A stretch of 64,000 bases of DNA. Origin: a bacterium. Lineage in GTDB: Bacteria; Patescibacteriota; Microgenomatia; Curtissbacterales; GWA2-41-24. Within the stretch, counting starts at the first letter, position 1; every line of letters starts with the position of its first letter. This document shows, piece by piece, positions 2,183 to 35,105 of the stretch. The DNA lies in NCBI GenBank assembly GCA_021813945.1, contig JAKAJD010000001.1, positions 270,742 through 334,741 on the forward strand. Reading direction: 5' to 3'. The position numbers and the translations under genes were made by a program. The notes below the pieces were generated by a model. That model was not told the DNA's origin. It made no database searches and worked only from the letters and a program-made list of their open reading frames with translations.

Positions 2183-2962
2183 CTATAAATCAATTTCCAG
2201 CTCTGCAATAACAGGCAAGTGATCAGATACTGTAATTTCGGGTACCGTAATCGAATTAAGTTTAAACTCCGCTGAAGCAAATATGTAATCGATCAAAAAA
2301 CCCAATGGCGCAATTTTGTGAACCTTTAAATTAGTTGTAACCTTTGCATCGGCTTGAATCATAAGATTATTGGCAACTTTCCCTATCAATTCGACAGTTT
2401 TGCTAGTCATAACTGCATTTAAATCTCCGCCCAAAATGAATGGATCATTAAGTTTTTTCAGATAATCGTAGACCATATTAGCCTGCCGCATAGTCTCTGC
2501 TGTATCCTGAGGAGGAGCAGTCCAAGCGCCGTGCCAGGACATAATGTGAAAGTCAGAGCCATGAAAGTTTACAACTGCATCCAAAAGACTGCGGCCAATT
2601 TGCTCACGAATCTCACCGGACTCTCCGTCTAGCTCCTCGTTTGTAACAGCTCTAAAACTCTTAAGTACCAAAGAATTCTTGCCCACCATTTTATGCTTAC
2701 TAAAAACTGCATTTCCGAACCTGGCTTTTTCGTCACCAATCAGTTTTAAATCTCCGTTATAAACACCACCCACTCCTAATTTAGAACCAAGCACGGCAAA
2801 AATATCCTTGTTGTCTCCTTCATACAAACTAAATCCGCTAGTGGTAACTTCCTGCATGGTCACAAAATCAGGATCTTCTTTTTTCAAAAAATCCACAAGC
2901 GTATCCAGGTAGCGGCCTTTATAAATATTTATCTGGACAATCTTTATCTTGTAGGTGGACAT
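2183..2962 (-). CDS. Endonuclease/exonuclease/phosphatase (EEP) family protein
   Basis: 259 aa. 'DFVTMQEV' N-terminal motif and C-terminal 'SDHLPVIAEL' are typical of the EEP fold (sphingomyelinase/DNase I-like). Confidence 0.75.
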   Translation of the reverse strand: MSTYKIKIVQINIYKGRYLDTLVDFLKKEDPDFVTMQEVTTSGFSLYEGDNKDIFAVLGSKLGVGGVYNGDLKLIGDEKARFGNAVFSKHKMVGKNSLVLKSFRAVTNEELDGESGEIREQIGRSLLDAVVNFHGSDFHIMSWHGAWTAPPQDTAETMRQANMVYDYLKKLNDPFILGGDLNAVMTSKTVELIGKVANNLMIQADAKVTTNLKVHKIAPLGFLIDYIFASAEFKLNSITVPEITVSDHLPVIAELEIDL

Positions 2963-2977
2963 TGCTAAAATAAAATT

Positions 2978-3424
2978 ATGAGACGCGGATTTGTCTTACC
3001 GATAATTATATTACTATTCGTTGTCGGAGTAACATATTTTATCTACGCAAAATATTCAAAATCACCTAACGAAAAAACAATGCAAACCGCATCAACAATA
3101 TATAAATATCCCAACAGTACGTCTTGGGAGATAAAGCCGCACCACAACCTTTGCGTCAATCCCAAAGATTCATGCGTTCAGCCTGCAGATATTATATTCA
3201 CCACTAATAACCAATGGGCAGAAATATACGCTTATTACAAAAGTTATTTGATAGATTACGGTTGGGAAACAAATAGTACGGTTTATACATCAATACCAAC
3301 CGGCATAGTATTCGAAAAAGAGGACTGTAAGTTGTTCTTACAACCAGCAGAAGGCGTTAACTTCTTGAGTGACAAAGCTGCAAAACCTCCCTACAAATTC
3401 ACATTTAGTGTTACTTGCCAGTAA
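2978..3424 (+). CDS. Hypothetical protein with N-terminal signal anchor
   Basis: 148 aa. N-terminal hydrophobic helix 'FVLPIIILLFVVGVTYFIY'. No recognisable motif. Confidence 0.4.
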   Translation: MRRGFVLPIIILLFVVGVTYFIYAKYSKSPNEKTMQTASTIYKYPNSTSWEIKPHHNLCVNPKDSCVQPADIIFTTNNQWAEIYAYYKSYLIDYGWETNSTVYTSIPTGIVFEKEDCKLFLQPAEGVNFLSDKAAKPPYKFTFSVTCQ

Positions 3425-5418: not shown

Positions 5419-6405
5419 ATGGAATCTAAAAGAAACACTAAAGTTAAGTGGAATAATAAGGTAAAACTGATCATCTCAGACGTAGACGAAACCGTCGCAG
5501 ATTTGTACGTCCCAGCAGACCCTAAAATGGCAGACGAGCTCGCAAAACTGCTGAAAGAGGGAAGGTCGATATTCTTTGTAACCGGCCAAAGCGTAGATAG
5601 CATTCAGTGGAGAATAGTCGAGCAGATACCAAAAGATTTAAGAAGAAGAATACTAATAGGCCACTGCAGCGGGGCAGAGGTTTTGGGTTATGACGAACAA
5701 GGCAACCGAAAAGAAAAACCCTATTATAGTGTTTACGAGCAAGCCATGACACAACGCCAAAAAGAAAAATGGCGGGATGTCGTAAAACAACTCGTACAAG
5801 AATTTCAGTTGGAAGTTTATAGCACGATGTCGGTCGAAGAATTCAAAAAGAAGGCAGGGGACCACCCAAAAGCCATCATGCTGGAGGATAGGGGACCACA
5901 GATAACTTTCGAGGTTGTAAACGGTTATGATTTAACACCCGAGCAGGCTGCAAAGTTGGAAACCGATGTACCCGAAACAAACGGGTCTTACGATTTAAGA
6001 ATCCCCATTGTCGAAAGAGCCCAGCAATTAATTGACGAGGCCAACCTTCCTGTGAGCCCTAAAATAGCCGGTGTTTTTGCTGTAGATTTAACCGTAAAAG
6101 GCGTTAATAAAACAACTTCCGTCAAGCGGGTTTTGGAAGATCCGGGAATTCTTTCATCCATAGGCCTTAACAAAGAAGACCTCGACGACCCAAACCATAT
6201 CGAAGTTTGGGGCGATAAATTTTCAACAATTCGGGGCGGCACAGACAGGCACATAAGCGAAGCTTTACCTCAAGCGGTTCGCTCTATCGACTTCAGGGAA
6301 GAAAATCCGGAAGAGTTTGAAACAAGCTACAACATTGTACTTTGGAAAGGCCAAAACCACTTGCACCATGGTTTGCTGGAATACCTTCAATCTAGACACG
6401 AATAG
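5419..6405 (+). CDS. HAD-superfamily hydrolase (probable sugar-phosphate phosphatase, HAD-IIB-like)
   Basis: 'IISDVDETV' matches HAD motif I (DxDxT). 'FVTGQS' matches motif II. 'GDKFSTIRGGTD' is a candidate motif IV. The ATG at 5419 is preceded by a GGAGA RBS; the ORF track starts at 5404 with GTG. Confidence 0.5.
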   Translation: MESKRNTKVKWNNKVKLIISDVDETVADLYVPADPKMADELAKLLKEGRSIFFVTGQSVDSIQWRIVEQIPKDLRRRILIGHCSGAEVLGYDEQGNRKEKPYYSVYEQAMTQRQKEKWRDVVKQLVQEFQLEVYSTMSVEEFKKKAGDHPKAIMLEDRGPQITFEVVNGYDLTPEQAAKLETDVPETNGSYDLRIPIVERAQQLIDEANLPVSPKIAGVFAVDLTVKGVNKTTSVKRVLEDPGILSSIGLNKEDLDDPNHIEVWGDKFSTIRGGTDRHISEALPQAVRSIDFREENPEEFETSYNIVLWKGQNHLHHGLLEYLQSRHE

Positions 6406-7100: not shown

Positions 7101-7175
7101 GTCGGGGAGAAAGGACTTGAACCTTCGACCTCTGCTTCCCAAAAGCAGCGCTCTAGCCAACTGAGCTACTCCCCG
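7101..7175 (-). tRNA. tRNA-Pro (anticodon TGG)
   Basis: Reverse complement reads CGGGGAGTAGCTCAGTTGGCTAGAGCG CTGCTtTTGGGaAGCAG AGGTCGAAGGTTCAAGTCCTTTCTCCCCGA. Confidence 0.85.
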
Positions 7176-7212
7176 TCGAGTGTTTACACTGAGGTCTGCA
7201 TAACAGACCGAA

Positions 7213-7297
7213 GTGCCGAGGGAGGGACTCGAACCCTCACGACCTTGCGGTCATCAGATTTTAAGTCTGACGTGTATACCGATTTCACCACCCCGGC
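7213..7297 (-). tRNA. tRNA-Leu (anticodon TAA)
   Basis: Reverse complement reads GCCGGGGTGGTGAAATCGGTATACACG TCAGACtTAAAAtCTGA. It has a long variable arm and GAGGGTTCGAGTCCCTC. Confidence 0.85.
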
Positions 7298-7319
7298 GGC
7301 TTATGCATTTTAGCCTAAA

Positions 7320-7619
7320 TTGACCTCTTGTTTCAATCAAAACTGGCCGTTAAAATTACCTGACATGAAAGATTCCAACGACGATCCATACATTCCGGTT
7401 GTCAACGACGGTGATGATAACGACGTTACTGACATTGGTGACGATGATGACACTAAATCGCCGGCTGTCGCAGGTGAAGAAGACCCGTTTTCTGGGGATG
7501 CAACATCTTCCGAATCGCCGGATATAGACGAAGAATTACAAAAAGTCGGCCTGACAAGTGACGAAGACGGCGTGAGGCCTCTTGATGTTGACGAGGAATT
7601 GGAAGAAGAAGACCAGTAA
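7320..7619 (+). CDS. Highly acidic low-complexity small protein (about 40% Asp/Glu)
   Basis: 99 aa 'DDPYIPVVNDGDDNDVTDIGDDDDTKSPAVAGEEDP...DVDEELEEEDQ' with clean codon periodicity. It lies between tRNA genes. It could be a DNA-mimic-like or spurious ORF. Confidence 0.3.
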   Translation: MTSCFNQNWPLKLPDMKDSNDDPYIPVVNDGDDNDVTDIGDDDDTKSPAVAGEEDPFSGDATSSESPDIDEELQKVGLTSDEDGVRPLDVDEELEEEDQ

Positions 7620-7678
7620 TTTAATCCCTAAAAATTTTTATTGTGATAAAATTATGAGGCTAACACGTCTCAAAATAT

Positions 7679-7697
7679 CAAAATGCAAAGCATTTTG
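7679..7697. repeat. 19-bp perfect palindrome CAAAATGCAAAGCATTTTG (copy 2)
   Basis: Identical 19-mer, 70 nt upstream of tRNA-Arg(TCG). A related TTTGCAAAGCATTTT covers the dsbB start at 30539..30556. Confidence 0.6.
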
Positions 7698-7769
7698 AAG
7701 AGGAGAAATGATAAAGCAATTAAAGTTTTGCAAAACGCAAAACGGAAATAGCGATATCTATTTCGACGA

Positions 7770-7842
7770 GCGCCTGTAGCTCAACGGATAGAGCACTCGT
7801 CTTCGGAACGAGTGGTTGGGGGTTCGAATCCCTCCAGGCGCG
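7770..7842 (+). tRNA. tRNA-Arg (anticodon TCG)
   Basis: GCGCCTGTAGCTCAACGGATAGAGCA CTCGTcTTCGGAaCGAG TGGTTGGGGGTTCGAATCCCTCCAGGCGCG. Confidence 0.85.
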
Positions 7843-7875
7843 CTTCGATCTGAAATCAGATCTCAGCGTAAACGC

Positions 7876-8175
7876 ATGCAGTGGTACGTTTATATCTTAA
7901 GCTGTGCCGACGGTATTTATTACACAGGAATTACTACTGACTTAAATAGACGAGTAGATCAGCACAATTCTAAGAAGGGCGCAAAATCTTTACGAGGAAA
8001 GCTGCCTGTAAAAATCGTTTACAATGAATCTTACAAGGATCATGTATTAGCTGCAAAAAGGGAAAGAGAAATTAAAGGATGGAGAAGAGAAAAAAAGACT
8101 TTGCTAGTAGAAGACTTTAGCCTCAGAACGAAAGAAGGCTTTAGCCTGAGGAGCAAAGCGACGAAGGCCCGCTAG
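7876..8175 (+). CDS. GIY-YIG nuclease family protein (UPF0213/YhbQ-like)
   Basis: 'MQWYVYILSCADGIYYTGITTDLNRRVDQHN' is the canonical GIY-YIG motif. The ATG at 7876 is the likely start. The 6-frame ORF is open from 7816, inside tRNA-Arg. The stop codon overlaps the 5' end of tRNA-Lys. Confidence 0.75.
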   Translation: MQWYVYILSCADGIYYTGITTDLNRRVDQHNSKKGAKSLRGKLPVKIVYNESYKDHVLAAKREREIKGWRREKKTLLVEDFSLRTKEGFSLRSKATKAR

Positions 8176-8237
8176 CTCAATGGTAGAGCAGTTGCCTCTT
8201 AAGCAATTGGTTACAGGTTCGAATCCTGTGCGGGTCA
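8166..8237 (+). tRNA. tRNA-Lys (anticodon CTT)
   Basis: GGCCCGCTAGCTCAATGGTAGAGCA GTTGCcTCTTAaGCAAT TGGTTACAGGTTCGAATCCTGTGCGGGTCA. Confidence 0.85.
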
Positions 8238-8343
8238 CAAATTTGTTTGGCTTCGTTCAAATAAATTTGTGATTCTGCCAGATCATACCCCTAGGTTCGC
8301 GTTTTGCTAAGCAAAACGTTTTCATCCTGTGCAAGTCACAGAT

Positions 8344-8838
8344 TTAACTGGTTTGGGTTCCTGGAAGCGGAGGTGTCCCAAATTGGTCTACGATTGCCCT
8401 TGTTAAATCCGCACCTATTTTCCCTGCGTTTATCTCACCTTGAATGGCGCCCATAATTTCTGTCATATGTCGACTGTTAACATCTCGAAGTGGAACAGCG
8501 CCTGCGCCTACGGCACCCATATTTGCTTCATATGCCAGCTTTGTGATGCCTTTTTCATCACCAAAATTAGAAGAAACAAGAAATACCGGTATCCCTTTTT
8601 CCGTTATTTCCCTAATAAGTGGGGTTAGCTTTGTCGGTACTGCGCCTGTCGCATAAGTTTCTAAAATAACCGCCTTAGGCTGTGCAGATAGAGTTGCATC
8701 GAATAAGCCTCTTGCCAAAGCTTCGTTACTTAAAGAAGGATTTACGGCAATTAAACCAAGATCCGGAAATTCAGTTGGACTTGTTTCCGTTGTTTCAATA
8801 GAATCCTCAGGCATATAGCTATTATAGCCAATTTCCAA
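8344..8838 (-). CDS. Asparaginase/GatD C-terminal-domain-like protein (domain-only; possible gene remnant)
   Basis: 164 aa. 'AVILETYATGAVP', 'GIPVFLVSS' and 'MGAVGAGAVP' resemble the C-terminal lobe of type I/II L-asparaginase or GatD. The N-terminal catalytic lobe (Thr motif) is absent. The segment is GC-rich and sits next to tRNA-Lys. Confidence 0.35.
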   Translation of the reverse strand: MEIGYNSYMPEDSIETTETSPTEFPDLGLIAVNPSLSNEALARGLFDATLSAQPKAVILETYATGAVPTKLTPLIREITEKGIPVFLVSSNFGDEKGITKLAYEANMGAVGAGAVPLRDVNSRHMTEIMGAIQGEINAGKIGADLTRAIVDQFGTPPLPGTQTS

Positions 8839-8914
8839 AATACTTTATTGTAATTACCTTTCTAAATCGCCTAATATTATTACAAACTAAAAACAAGACC
8901 GGTTAATTTAAATA

Positions 8915-10456
8915 ATGAAAAAAAGCGCAATCATCAGTAAAATTATTGAGTTTTTATTTTGGCCGGGATTAATTTTTCACCTTTATACGGCTTCTTATTA
9001 TGCCCTAAAGGGTGAACTTAACTTTCAAACTGATATTGGCCGCGACTTTTTACTTTTCGAAGAGATACTCCAGAAAAAAATCGTTCTTATTGGTGGACGC
9101 ACGAGTGCTGCAGGGCTGTTTCATGGACCCTTGTGGTCCTATATCAATTTTCCAGTTTTTTGGCTTAGTCGCGGGAACCCCGTTGCACAAGAATGGTTTT
9201 GGTTATTTCTAATTGTTCTTTTTTTATTTTTTTCTTTCCAAATATGTAAAGATCTTTTTGGAAAAACTTCAGCCTTCATTTTCGTGTTGCTTACATCTTC
9301 TTTTTTGGCTTTTTGGGCCAAAGAATTTACACATCCCCACGCGGCATTTCTTCTAATGCCGTTTTTCTTCTATACCCTTATAAAATATACGGAAAATTTC
9401 AAAATAAAATGGCTCATTTATCATGTCCTTCTTTCTGGATTCATAGTCCAGCTGGAAGTTGCAGCCGGCGGACCGTTTTTAGTACTTTCATATCTTTATA
9501 TTCTTTTCAAACAATACAAGCAAAAACACATTAATCAGGCGCTTGGCTTCCTGGTAATTCTATTACCCCTCTCGCCATACATTTTGTTTGACCTTAAACA
9601 CAATTTTTTTCAAATTAAGAATTTAATTGTCTACGTACTGCCACATCCAAAAGAACACTACGTGGGGTTATCAAATATCCTAACCGACAGGCTAAATTAT
9701 GCAACAACCTTTGCGGTTCCACTTCTTCATAACTTAGGCCAACTAAAGTTATTAAACATTTTCTTTGCCCTTGTATTTCTAATTTTGACAATTTTAAGAT
9801 TGCAAGAAAAAAAGATCGGGCGGATTTACTGGGTATTTCTTTATTTTTTCTTTGGCTATTTCATAATAAGCCTTTTAAGCCGTTATTATCTTTTGACTCA
9901 AGATTTCTTGCCATTGGTGTCAGTCGTTTTTATGATTTTTGCGTCACTTTCCCAACCTAAATTTGCAAAAACATTTTTGGTCATGTTTCTAGTTGTTTAT
10001 ACTCTTAACATTTACGCCGGGACAAGATATCTAAGCGAATCAAAAAAAACAATGTCTTCCAGCCTAACATCCTGGAGGATTCTATCAAAAATATCCCAAG
10101 ACACATTTAGCGGCCCCGAAAACGAATTTGGATATTTTGTATATTCCCCAGACAAGCTGTCTTATTCGGCAAAGTATGCTCTTGTTTATGGAAGCTTAAA
10201 CAGCAGAAAAAAAGCTTATTATTTTGAAAAAAAACCCGTAACTTATGTCATAAGTGAAGCACCGGCTTACAACGATCCATGGGCAAAAAACTTCACCGAT
10301 GTCTGGTGGATCAAAAACTCAATAAAAATTAAGCCGGAGCCAGAACTTATCATTCATTACAAAAACGGCTACGAGCTAAAAAAATATAATTTAACTCCAG
10401 ACGAGATCAATATACCCTGGGACAAGCAGGAAGACACAGGCCTTCATTTCAGATAG
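8915..10456 (+). CDS. Polytopic membrane protein, GT39/ArnT-like glycosyltransferase family (paralog of 284..1783)
   Basis: 513 aa. 'GGRTSAAGLFHGPLWSY' aligns with 'GPPTDIPGFFHGPLYLY' of ORF 284. Multiple TM helices and a similar C-terminal soluble domain. Confidence 0.5.
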   Translation: MKKSAIISKIIEFLFWPGLIFHLYTASYYALKGELNFQTDIGRDFLLFEEILQKKIVLIGGRTSAAGLFHGPLWSYINFPVFWLSRGNPVAQEWFWLFLIVLFLFFSFQICKDLFGKTSAFIFVLLTSSFLAFWAKEFTHPHAAFLLMPFFFYTLIKYTENFKIKWLIYHVLLSGFIVQLEVAAGGPFLVLSYLYILFKQYKQKHINQALGFLVILLPLSPYILFDLKHNFFQIKNLIVYVLPHPKEHYVGLSNILTDRLNYATTFAVPLLHNLGQLKLLNIFFALVFLILTILRLQEKKIGRIYWVFLYFFFGYFIISLLSRYYLLTQDFLPLVSVVFMIFASLSQPKFAKTFLVMFLVVYTLNIYAGTRYLSESKKTMSSSLTSWRILSKISQDTFSGPENEFGYFVYSPDKLSYSAKYALVYGSLNSRKKAYYFEKKPVTYVISEAPAYNDPWAKNFTDVWWIKNSIKIKPEPELIIHYKNGYELKKYNLTPDEINIPWDKQEDTGLHFR

Positions 10457-31663: not shown

Positions 31664-31703
31664 CTTGACAGAAACCACTGCCGTCAAGTTTAATCAAAAG
31701 TCA

Positions 31704-32582
31704 ATGAAATTTACGAAAATAACAATCACCGCTTCTGTTTTTCTTATTTTAATAATGGGTGTGGTTTATTTTGCCAAAAATGCAAGAACGACTGAAAAAG
31801 CTCCAGTAATTCAAGTATTAAGCGCTCACGAAGCTAATTCAACACCACGGGAGGCCTCAAAAAGCCCAAGTCCTAGCAGGGAAGCTACAAGCAGTTTTGT
31901 CCCAACACTAGCCTCTGGCTATTGCCTCAACGTACCAGTTTTAATGTACCACCATATAGAACCCTCTACCCAAGCGAAAGCTGAGGGTCATTCAAGCCTC
32001 AATGTTGATTCCGGCATTTTCGCCTCACAAATGGCCTATCTTTCATCAAAAGGCTACAACACCATAACAGCTGATGACCTTGTTAACGCTCTAAAAAGGC
32101 AAGGCACAATTCCTTCAAAAAGCATTGTTTTAACTTTTGATGATGGGTACAGTGATTTTTATACATATGCTTTTCCGGTAATCAAGCAATACAACTTTAA
32201 AGCAAACCTCATGATCCCCACCGGGCTAATTCAAAATAACGGGTACATGACTTGGGGTCAGCTCCAAGAAATTTCCTCAAGTGGCAGCAAAATCTACAAT
32301 CATACCTGGTCTCACGCATCACTTGGGGGAGCAACAATCGATAAAATTACCTACGAAATTTCAACGGCAAACAAGCAAATATCCCAATACCTGGGTTACA
32401 CTCCGGATATCTTCACCTATCCTTACGGATCGGAAGGGTCGACTGTCATAAATTATCTCGTCTCCCAAGGGTTCCGTGGAGCCTTTTCTGAAATTCCCGG
32501 CACCTACCAATGCGATTCTTATCTTATGACCTTACACCGAACCAGAATAGGCAATTCACAGCTTTCAGCATACGGTATCTAA
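31704..32582 (+). CDS. Polysaccharide deacetylase (NodB homology domain)
   Basis: 'LTFDDGYSDFYTYAFPV' matches NodB motif 1. Also 'HTWSH'. The ORF track starts at TTG 31665; an ATG at 31704 gives a signal anchor. Confidence 0.7.
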   Translation: MKFTKITITASVFLILIMGVVYFAKNARTTEKAPVIQVLSAHEANSTPREASKSPSPSREATSSFVPTLASGYCLNVPVLMYHHIEPSTQAKAEGHSSLNVDSGIFASQMAYLSSKGYNTITADDLVNALKRQGTIPSKSIVLTFDDGYSDFYTYAFPVIKQYNFKANLMIPTGLIQNNGYMTWGQLQEISSSGSKIYNHTWSHASLGGATIDKITYEISTANKQISQYLGYTPDIFTYPYGSEGSTVINYLVSQGFRGAFSEIPGTYQCDSYLMTLHRTRIGNSQLSAYGI

Positions 32583-32854
32583 TACTTCAGAAAAACTCGA
32601 CCCACAACATCGGATCGCTTAAGCTCGTAAACCTTTTTTGCCAATGATTTATTGTCAGAAACAGTAGTAACTTTTTCGCCGTTCAGCTTGCTAACTCTTT
32701 TTATAAGATGATTTGAGTCGCCTTTAAACACCACAACACTGCCTTTTTGGATTTTTCCCCAATTGAAAGTAATAACCCTATCAAATTCCCGAAAAACAGG
32801 TTCCATGCTATGATCTCTAACAATAAAAATTGAGAGGGGGAATTTAAACTTCAC
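32579..32854 (-). CDS. sodX: Nickel-type superoxide dismutase maturation protease (S26-like, SodX)
   Basis: 91 aa. Ser in 'DHSMEPVF' and Lys in 'LIKRVSKLNGEKV' match the signal-peptidase Ser/Lys dyad motifs. It sits in an operon with sodN. Confidence 0.6.
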   Translation of the reverse strand: MKFKFPLSIFIVRDHSMEPVFREFDRVITFNWGKIQKGSVVVFKGDSNHLIKRVSKLNGEKVTTVSDNKSLAKKVYELKRSDVVGRVFLKY

Positions 32855-33110
32855 TAGTAGTTAAAACTCGTGGAGCACCGATATGTCCAACCACCAAGCG
32901 TCTACGCTCTTGAGGATCTATTTTTTCAATCCTTTCATGAAAATTATCCTCTGTTGATTCTACGATTACCGTTTCACCGTACAAAACGCCTATCCAAGTT
33001 CCCAGGGGATACATTTCTGAGGCAATTATTCCGTCCAGTACTTTTTGGTCTGAATCGTGTTTTTCAATTTCGCGTCCTATGATGTCATGTACTTCTTTTC
33101 CATGACTCAT
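32844..33110 (-). CDS. Hypothetical His-containing small protein inside the sodN-sodX operon
   Basis: 88 aa. Its start overlaps the sodN stop by 4 nt, and its stop overlaps the sodX start by 11 nt. Confidence 0.4.
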   Translation of the reverse strand: MSHGKEVHDIIGREIEKHDSDQKVLDGIIASEMYPLGTWIGVLYGETVIVESTEDNFHERIEKIDPQERRRLVVGHIGAPRVLTTSEV

Positions 33111-33544
33111 TTCTTTGCCCCTGCCTTTACTTTATTAAACATTTCGGTTATTTCGTCAACAGCAGTTTTAAGATCTTGGGCAGCATTCATATCAACAGAT
33201 TGCTTATTGGTAGAGCAAAGTTTTGTTGCTTTCCAAAATTTATCGTGAAGGTCCGGAAAGATTTCCAAATGCTCCGGCTTAAAAAAATCCGTCCACAAAA
33301 TCAAAAGCTCTTCTTTGCAGCGCCTGGCATGCTCCTCTTTGGTCCAAACTGCTCTTACAAACAAATTCCTATCACCAACAGTCGCATTTTCCTTTGGCAG
33401 CCCTTCTATCTTTTCGACCATTTTCAAAACGGTTTCTGCAGCAATCTGCGCCGGTTTGGGGTCGTAAATCCCGCACGGTACATCACAATGAGCAAACGCT
33501 GTTTCTATTGGGAAAAATCGGTCAAAAAATCTAAGTATCTTCAT
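33107..33544 (-). CDS. sodN: Nickel superoxide dismutase precursor (NiSOD)
   Basis: The leader 'MKILRFFDRFFPIETAFA' is followed by 'HCDVPCGIYDP', which matches the Ni-hook HCDLPCGVYDP of the mature N-terminus. Confidence 0.8.
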   Translation of the reverse strand: MKILRFFDRFFPIETAFAHCDVPCGIYDPKPAQIAAETVLKMVEKIEGLPKENATVGDRNLFVRAVWTKEEHARRCKEELLILWTDFFKPEHLEIFPDLHDKFWKATKLCSTNKQSVDMNAAQDLKTAVDEITEMFNKVKAGAKK

Positions 33545-33690
33545 GTCGAAGGATTATTATAACAGACAAAACAAGAGTCTATATTGTTAACAGTATTATT
33601 AACAAAGGTCAGGCCTTAAGTCAGGCCGGTTCAACGAAGAAGACCTGACCTTGGGATAAAAAATGGGGAAACTCACAACTAGCCTGCCGT

Positions 33691-34383
33691 CTACGCCTGC
33701 ACGAACTTTAGCAGATATTTCTTGCTCAGCTCAATACCGCTTTGTGGGAGAATTTTAACTTTTTCAGCATAGGTCAAGACGTTATTAAGAAGGATAAAGT
33801 TTGCACTTATTCCAAGAGCAAATATTGACCTTTCCAAAATAACTACAGGAATAAGCGTGTTCCAGTATAAAGGTGTAGTTTTAAAAGCCCAAATCCATAA
33901 AGCACCGCCTACAGAGTGCGACGAAAATGTCGCAAACAGTGAATTTGCGAAAAGCGATTTTTTTCTAAAAAGCGAAGCTGCAAGTGGAATCATCCAAAGA
34001 AACGTAAAATACCAAACAGCACGACCAACAGGATTTAAAAGAAACAGCAAAATCGAAGCGGCAGGCAACACCAAAGCCCACTTATCCTTGCGGGAAAAGG
34101 CAAAAACCCCAGCCCCCATCGAAACTAGTCTGCTCGTTGCCAAAAGCGCCAAAATTGAAACAGTACTAAGAGATGAAAATCCGTGCAAGAAAAGATTGGC
34201 TATCTGCATTGCAAAAACAGCTACGAATCCAAAAGTCGTGCCCAAAAACGCTCCGGAAACCGGGTAAAACATATCAAAAAAAGTTAATTTGGCACGAGTT
34301 CCAACTAACGTGTTAACCGGAAGCTGCAGAAGTAAAAAGCCCAAAGCTGCAAAGATTAAAATGTAAAGAAGTTTATTTTTCAT
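33691..34383 (-). CDS. Polytopic membrane protein (possible ECF-transporter S-component-like)
   Basis: 230 aa, 5-6 TM helices. It overlaps the upstream SDR gene by 4 nt. Confidence 0.4.
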   Translation of the reverse strand: MKNKLLYILIFAALGFLLLQLPVNTLVGTRAKLTFFDMFYPVSGAFLGTTFGFVAVFAMQIANLFLHGFSSLSTVSILALLATSRLVSMGAGVFAFSRKDKWALVLPAASILLFLLNPVGRAVWYFTFLWMIPLAASLFRKKSLFANSLFATFSSHSVGGALWIWAFKTTPLYWNTLIPVVILERSIFALGISANFILLNNVLTYAEKVKILPQSGIELSKKYLLKFVQA

Positions 34384-35105
34384 ACAATGCCTGGAACAAA
34401 TCCACCCGCTACTTCGATATTAGCTCCATTTATATAATATGCATCTGGAGAAATCAAGAACCGAATAGCGCTTACTACATCATTAGGCATCGCCGTGCGC
34501 TTCATTGGGAATTCTCTTGTATTAAAAATGTCCGTCTCCAGTGAGGCCGGAGAAACCATATTCACATGAATTCCGTGTTTTGCTTCCTCAAAAGCCATCG
34601 TTTTTGTCAAAACGTAAATGGCATTCTTCCCTAAGAAATAGGGTATAGATTTATGGCGAATTATGGATCTTTCAGCACCTACTGACCCAATGTTTATCAC
34701 ATGTCCAAATTTCTGATTTCTCATAATTTCAAACGCGGCCCGTGAACAGTATAAGGTGGAATAAACGTTCGATTCGACAATATCACGAAATTCAGCATTG
34801 GTGGTTTTTGAAAACTCCTTGAATAAGAAATTTCCAACATTATTTACAAGAACATCAAGTCGTCCAAACTCACGTCTGATTCTGGAAAAAATTTCCTCCA
34901 CATCCTTTTCGTTAGTCAAATCTCCACTAACAATAATCGATTTGGAAATTTTGTTAATTTCCAAAGCTATTTTTTCGGCTTCTTTCTTGCTTGATCTATA
35001 GTGGACGGCAACACTAAAGCCATCCTTAGCAAGCTCCAGCGCGATATCTCTACCCAAACCTTTTGCAGAACCGGTAACTAATGCAACTTTTCCCATAGAT
35101 TGCAT
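34380..35105 (-). CDS. SDR-family oxidoreductase (FabG-like)
   Basis: 'ALVTGSAKGLGRD' (TGxxxGxG) and the catalytic 'YVLTK' (YxxxK). Confidence 0.8.
   Translation of the reverse strand: MQSMGKVALVTGSAKGLGRDIALELAKDGFSVAVHYRSSKKEAEKIALEINKISKSIIVSGDLTNEKDVEEIFSRIRREFGRLDVLVNNVGNFLFKEFSKTTNAEFRDIVESNVYSTLYCSRAAFEIMRNQKFGHVINIGSVGAERSIIRHKSIPYFLGKNAIYVLTKTMAFEEAKHGIHVNMVSPASLETDIFNTREFPMKRTAMPNDVVSAIRFLISPDAYYINGANIEVAGGFVPGIV

Follow-up and report, generated by a model that had tools for sequence, protein, structure and literature searches.

An 88-residue protein encoded between sodN and sodX in a nickel superoxide dismutase operon of a Curtissbacterales bacterium

Maturation of nickel superoxide dismutase (NiSOD) is thought to require only the SodX protease and nickel. 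Here, we describe a sodN-sodX operon in which a third gene lies between the two, located on the reverse strand of a 64,000-nucleotide stretch of DNA (the window; positions 270,742 to 334,741 of contig JAKAJD010000001.1, assembly GCA_021813945.1) from a Curtissbacterales bacterium of the candidate phyla radiation (CPR). Judged by its sequence, the middle open reading frame (ORF) is a genuine protein-coding gene. In the databases searched, its family has two members, each of which lies between sodN and sodX in Microgenomates-like CPR genomes; the system as such is known, and the extra gene is lineage-restricted. We tentatively read the product of this gene as an optional, fast-evolving, acidic and co-translated accessory of NiSOD maturation that would act by protein contact and not by nickel carriage. 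If this is true, a third, co-translated component of NiSOD maturation would be new; as it stands, the importance of the finding is modest, the gene being a two-lineage orphan that relatives do without.

The middle ORF overlaps both of its neighbors. Its ATG is placed over the TGA of sodN (ATGA), giving an overlap of 4 nt (33107-33110), and its TAA falls within sodX codons 3-4, 8 nt inside sodX, giving an overlap of 11 nt (32844-32854). These coordinates agree with those of an earlier note on this DNA, which had called an 88-aa ORF overlapping sodN by 4 nt and sodX by 11 nt. An open frame of 88 codons arises in only 0.11% of shuffles (probability 0.0011). The in-frame codon score of the ORF is 0.176, which exceeds the scores of its five other frames and compares with 0.236 ± 0.073 for the long genes of the window and -0.59 for off-frame reading, and its base composition is unremarkable. 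Five independent assemblies, one of which is a 975,962-bp contig, carry the ORF without a single difference. Population polymorphism was unusable for a selection test, since the contigs within each lineage are identical or 1 nt apart.

We retrieved 160 loci encoding SodN relatives and searched them by tblastn with the middle protein. The sole homologue is P0125, a protein of 87 aa encoded at positions 2950-3213 of locus L121, from a CPR lineage of Hainich groundwater (L121/L125), and it is located between sodN and sodX, as in the window. The two proteins are 27-29% identical over 81 aa. With the residues of the sodX overlap removed, their Smith-Waterman score is 101, compared with 24 ± 4.3 for shuffled sequences, and none of 5000 shuffles reaches it (z = 18). 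Likewise, the junctions are built in the same way in both lineages, with the start overlap reading AAATGAG and the TAA lying within the TTTAAA of sodX.

Wider searches added no further relative. When 5.8e9 proteins were searched with a word-indexed method, the middle protein matched itself only, and an exhaustive phmmer search of 1.84e9 representatives returned the query and three repeat proteins. We rejected P0122 as a relative because its repeats give the identical 30-bit match six times and it shows no match to P0125, and rejected P0123 and P0124 on the grounds that each has 4-5 repeats that match different parts of the query, which inflates their E-values. At its reporting threshold of E<=0.001, phmmer missed P0125, and further members at ~25% identity could go undetected. 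A profile built from the two sequences recovered only the clusters P0001 and P0125 from the 5.8e9 proteins. We found no relative of the middle protein in viral contigs and phage records, nothing significant in the Pfam, NCBIfam, PHROGs and PADLOC libraries, no match for either homologue at E<=10 among the PADLOC models of anti-phage defence and toxin-antitoxin systems, and nothing in a sequence-profile search of the PDB with the middle protein. Within the window, neither flanking repeats nor further copies of the ORF were found. A weak tblastn match in a HAD-like gene of the window (5518-5697, E 0.085) was rejected as chance, the two-sequence hidden Markov model (HMM) not confirming it.

With two sequences in hand, we considered whether the ORF might not be a gene, but a chance open frame in an enlarged spacer or a piece of a frameshifted SodN/SodX fusion. 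It is without database annotation or family match, and the junction in L121 contains an A-rich run (AGT AAA AAA TGA) that might slip by -1. However, the corresponding junction in the window (AAG AAA TGA) is a poor slippery site, and the ATG falls exactly at the overlap in both carrier lineages; on these two counts, a -1 frameshift fusion with SodN was rejected. The length of the open frame has been held (88 versus 87 aa) at 27% identity with the similarity z of 18 given above, the codon bias is that of a coding frame, and the SodN and SodX proteins of relatives are complete without the middle ORF. We therefore find it scarcely credible that the ORF is anything other than a gene.

The flanking genes identify the system. 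The SodN precursor consists of the leader MKILRFFDRFFPIETAFA followed directly by the hook sequence HCDVPCGIYDP, and it scores well above the cut-offs of both family models, Pfam Sod_Ni (PF09055; 1.4e-44, 152.2 bits, cut-off 25) and TIGR02753 (9e-47, 158.9 bits, cut-off 90). His1, Cys2, Cys6, Tyr9 and Ala(-1) are invariant in 42 of 42 distinct relatives, so that the alignment confirms the conservation of the nickel hook. Thus, the predicted SodN of the window is a NiSOD with its hook intact right after a predicted cleavable leader. SodX matches Peptidase_S24 (35.9 bits, cut-off 23.3) and Peptidase_S26 (30.3 bits, cut-off 22.9), and its Ser16 and Lys52 are invariant in 42 of 42 distinct relatives. 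With the family HMMs over cut-off and with the hook and dyad residues invariant, the earlier description of a sodN-sodX operon that encodes a Ser/Lys protease and a SodN with a diagnostic Ni-hook after a putatively cleavable leader stands. The SodX equivalog model, TIGR02754, is matched only below its cut-off (15.6 bits versus 63.25), and the assignment is made on the strength of adjacency to sodN: with a SodX HMM, a SodX-like ORF is found just downstream of sodN in 148 of 171 sodN loci, at a median gap of ~34 nt. The window SodX is a divergent CPR branch of the maturation protease.

The extent of the overlap between the middle ORF and sodX is contingent on the GTG start of sodX. Automatic gene calls on five public contigs begin SodX at Met17 (75 aa; 32806 versus 32854), a start that would drop the catalytic Ser16. 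Since relatives keep the N-terminus MKxxFPFSxFIVxDHSMEP, we take the GTG start, and hence the 11-nt overlap, to be correct. The Met17 mis-start of CPR SodX is seen in the window and in L001, L002, L166 and L172, where N-terminal conservation backs an upstream GTG, TTG or ATG. The recognition that gene callers truncate CPR SodX at Met17, with loss of the catalytic serine, is possibly of wider use.

From the arrangement of these sequences, sodN, the middle gene and sodX are predicted to form one transcription unit. An extended -10 element precedes sodN, and most of the relatives listed, among them L006, L007, L086-L089, L094, L113 and L128, have TGnTATAAT 7-11 nt before the start codon of this gene. 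A promoter consensus scan gave chance-level counts, and the -10 call rests on this conserved position. Because the element is so near the sodN ATG, a leaderless or near-leaderless transcript is implied. No Shine-Dalgarno sequence is visible before sodN, the middle ORF or sodX, and the consensus scan found no internal promoter or terminator above chance in the three-gene unit. The overlaps, together with the lack of Shine-Dalgarno sequences, imply coupling by termination and reinitiation from SodN to the middle protein to SodX. The earlier note had considered co-translation of the middle ORF almost certain, and the confirmed overlaps, the junctions common to both lineages and the lack of Shine-Dalgarno sequences all point to such coupling.

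Several other features were observed around sodN and its promoter. Just upstream of the -10 element lies a palindrome with 9-bp arms (TTGTTAATA-ATAC-TGTTAACAA, 33583-33604), which could be an operator and is not conserved in relatives. The hairpin beside it (AAGGTCAGG...CCTGACCTT, 33605-33652) is probably the terminator of the membrane-protein gene that precedes sodN. Directly upstream of the sodN promoter of L089, at ~20-100, there are ~10 tandem copies of the 7-nt unit GACGCTA.

A homologous ORF between sodN and sodX occurs in only two lineages, those of the window and L121, among the 148 loci. In the closest relatives of the window (L006, L087, L088 and L007; SodN 71-83% and SodX 64-67% identical), sodN and sodX are separated by 22-68 nt that contain no ORF, which speaks against the claim of a general role for the middle protein in the NiSOD system. 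The absence of the ORF from close relatives with a sodN-sodX pair, a possibility raised with the original proposal, is thus seen in the nearest of them but is not absolute, given that L121 has the gene; likewise, co-occurrence between sodN and sodX in other genomes was found in the L121 lineage and not at the other loci. In neighbor-joining trees of SodN, of SodX and of the two concatenated, the window groups with the ORF-less loci L006, L087, L088 and L007, and L121 falls beside L128 and L162, which also have no such ORF. The two carriers are therefore not sisters, and their distribution requires at least two gains or at least four losses of the middle gene.

The structure of the middle protein was predicted with AlphaFold2 (AF2) from the two-sequence alignment. 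The mean pLDDT is 70.9, the core (residues 20-79) is at 85-90 and the termini are disordered; the topology of the core is alpha-beta-beta-alpha-alpha-beta (helix, hairpin, helix, helix, strand). Foldseek searches of the PDB with two models gave nothing better than E = 0.25. Against BFVD, the best compact matches are Pandoravirus DUF5678 proteins (prob 0.91-0.93, TM 0.47-0.58, E ~0.1). DUF5678 proteins, which occur in archaea, bacteria and giant viruses, are like the middle protein in size and in their predicted helix, beta-hairpin, helix and strand topology, and presumably also share with it a GxW(V/I)(A/G)(I/V) strand motif, which we take as a lead only. Neither the window protein nor P0125 matches the Pfam DUF5678 model (PF18929) at E<=10, and a look-up of DUF5678 function gave nothing useful. 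The predicted resemblance is a weak lead, not a result, and membership would not explain the mechanism, since the family is without known function. An RRE/PqqD-like leader-binding domain was rejected, having another predicted topology and no Foldseek match in the PDB.

These results allow a different view of the middle gene, namely that it is a passenger: an unrelated small protein, possibly of mobile or phage origin and with a DUF5678-like fold, that is tolerated and co-expressed in the sodN-sodX spacer. This is a real possibility, and we consider it nearly as likely as an accessory role. It would be in keeping with the patchy distribution among non-sister carriers, with the repeated gains or losses that this requires, with the best fold matches being to Pandoravirus DUF5678 and with the fact that the NiSOD of relatives works without the gene. 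Likewise, a comparison of the two carriers gives 27-29% identity for the middle protein versus 64.5% for SodN, 54.5% for SodX, 60% for the upstream short-chain dehydrogenase (SDR) and 48% for the membrane protein; the middle protein is therefore the fastest evolving, at ~2x its neighbors. On the other hand, searches of viral contigs, of phage records and of other genomic contexts gave no homologue, and the host-like codon usage and unremarkable composition of the gene speak against a passenger, as do the lack of flanking repeats and of copies elsewhere in the window. At E 0.1, the DUF5678 fold match falls short of significance, and it has no counterpart in a Pfam DUF5678 sequence match. Finally, the frame has stayed intact in streamlined genomes while identity fell to 27%, which is an argument for selection.

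The earlier note had instead suggested a Ni-delivery or chaperone role, in which a His/Asp/Glu-rich protein would bind Ni(II) and pass it to the fresh N-terminus of SodN. The placement of the gene between a nickel enzyme and its protease fits such a role, as does the composition of the window protein, which has 17 D+E (19% acidic), 10 K+R, 5 His (5.7%) and no Cys. A Cu/Ni site of the amino-terminal type, a kind of site whose chemistry is established, might in principle be formed by its N-terminus (MSH/SHG). However, P0125 (16 D+E, 10 K+R, 3 His, 1 Cys) shares no His or Cys column with it: all 5 His of the window protein face non-His residues, and its first 10 residues, with the His found there, are either missing or replaced in L121. 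With neither His nor Cys conserved from one protein to the other, the idea of a nickel chaperone is unsupported. In addition, the protein matches no known Ni-chaperone family, NiSOD relatives lack the gene, and the conserved membrane protein encoded upstream is more plausible for nickel supply. We thus regard a role in nickel delivery as very unlikely.

Our preferred, tentative reading of the middle protein as an accessory of NiSOD maturation draws on its genomic context. Both family members lie between sodN and sodX, and the 5.8e9 proteins, the 1.84e9 representatives, the viral contigs and the phage records yielded no member located elsewhere. The compact core (pLDDT 85-90) that AF2 predicts, with two sequences as its only input, speaks for a real gene. 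The residues invariant between the two proteins are I11, I15, K17, S20, D21, Q22, L25, D26, I29, A30, Y34, P35, G37, T38, W39, D55, G78, A79, P80, R81, L83, E87 and V88. In the mechanism that we propose, ribosomes finishing SodN would reinitiate on the middle ORF and then on SodX, and the middle protein could, for instance, tune processing or assembly by binding to the SodN precursor or to SodX. Its contact surface may comprise the YPxGTW turn together with a conserved helix, I11-A30 (K17, S20, D21, Q22, D26), and the likewise conserved GAPRxL tail. As in nearly all relatives, SodN and SodX would be enough for NiSOD to function. It is also conceivable, if rather improbable, that the two homologues are the first members of a dedicated non-metal-binding adaptor that sits on the SodN pro-peptide, on the Ni-hook or on SodX, times cleavage and nickel capture, and has been gained or retained in some CPR bacteria only.

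A number of points weigh against an accessory role. Counting each carrier lineage once, the middle gene is absent from 146 of the 148 sodN-sodX loci, including the nearest relatives of both carriers, and is on that account dispensable. Its two occurrences in one context would amount to a single event if the arrangement arose only once. The conserved residues are defined by two sequences only, and the identity of E87 and V88 is due to the overlapping conserved sodX codons, which constrain them in place of the protein. Operons of streamlined genomes often carry unrelated genes.

Table 1. Features of the NiSOD locus and the genes upstream of it (window positions)
Feature	Position	Strand	Basis or remark
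sodX, S24/S26-type NiSOD maturation protease, 91 aa, GTG start	32579..32854	-	Peptidase_S24/S26 matches
Terminator-like hairpin with T-run, 3' end of sodX	32598..32617	-	consensus match only; count not above shuffles
SodX Lys52 (IKRV)	32699-32701	-	
SodX Ser16 (SMEP)	32807-32809	-	
Middle ORF, 88-aa acidic orphan protein, ATG start	32844..33110	-	codon usage, one homologue; no family match
sodN, Ni superoxide dismutase precursor, 145 aa	33107..33544	-	Pfam PF09055 and TIGR02753
Ni-hook HCDVPCGIY	33464-33490	-	
SodN leader, 18 aa, ends A-F-A	33491-33544	-	
Extended -10 element TGTTATAAT	33556..33564	-	ends 11 nt upstream of sodN ATG
Membrane protein, 230 aa, multi-pass, directly upstream of sodN	33691..34383	-	synteny; ECF S-component resemblance via homologues
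SDR, first gene of the SDR-membrane-sodN-sodX block	34380..35105	-	adh_short matches

The membrane protein encoded upstream of sodN belongs to a conserved arrangement (Table 1). At least 24 distinct CPR lineages encode it upstream of sodN, usually after an SDR gene, with homologues at L006, L008, L012, L087-L128, L162 and other loci, and the order SDR, membrane protein, sodN and sodX is common to the window, L121 and many other loci. The window membrane protein itself has no Pfam match and no sequence match in the PDB. Among its homologues, 6 of 20 match PF12822, the S component of energy-coupling factor (ECF) transporters, with a best E of 2e-4. D37, H156, E184-R185 and several Trp residues are invariant. 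We suggest the membrane protein as a candidate Ni-uptake component; for nickel supply, it is a stronger candidate than the middle ORF. The conserved CPR block of SDR, ECF-S-like membrane protein, sodN and sodX, with its candidate nickel importer, may prove useful beyond this locus.

Several observations concern the surroundings of sodN and sodX in the window and at other loci. The 3' end of sodX overlaps by 4 nt (32579-32582) that of a convergent polysaccharide deacetylase gene on the forward strand (31665-32582). A GC-rich inverted repeat (AGGGTCAGGC...GCCTGACCTT in L006), similar to the window hairpin at 33605-33652, fills the sodN-sodX spacer of L006 and L088. The longer sodN-sodX gaps of Caldilineaceae (L059, L078) were examined as possible sites of an extra gene, which was rejected in favor of N-terminal extensions of SodX. 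In the Hainich lineage, L166 carries a serine recombinase (Resolvase) gene and a Prim-Pol/AAA_25 gene at 7174-10264, ~2 kb downstream of its sodN-middle gene-sodX unit, which suggests an integrated element nearby; this region differs between L166 and L167.

NiSOD is common and widespread in CPR bacteria, as judged by genome matches. A search with SodN gave 1774 relatives, the nearest 120 of which (68-85% identity) include Curtiss-, Davies- and Magasanikbacteria, and the genome matches also include Roizman-, Levy-, Terry- and Sungbacteria, Saccharibacteria and Parcubacteria. In cyanobacteria, the strains that have NiSOD only are the small-genome ones (PMC8346466). Thus, the notion that NiSOD is unusual in a reduced-genome lineage does not hold for CPR bacteria, and cyanobacterial NiSOD is likewise a small-genome trait. 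The spread of NiSOD across CPR bacteria is another observation of possible broader use.

Small accessory proteins encoded beside a nickel enzyme are known from other systems. The Ni metallochaperones HypA/HypB, UreE, SlyD and CooJ are of this kind, as is CbiXhp of Streptomyces seoulensis. The middle protein resembles the metallochaperones in being a small protein encoded beside a nickel enzyme, but it has no conserved His/Cys cluster, no His-rich tail common to both homologues and no sequence or fold similarity to them. The sodN-sodX pairs of Streptomyces and of marine cyanobacteria are closer to the window operon: they too encode a leader that ends in Ala and is followed by an HCxxPCxxY hook, and, next to it, a small Ser/Lys peptidase of the S24/S26 type by which His1 is exposed. 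In contrast to these systems, the window has its genes in one operon with a predicted near-leaderless promoter, its SodX is very short (91 aa) and falls under the TIGR02754 cut-off, and an extra, translationally coupled 88-aa gene lies between sodN and sodX.

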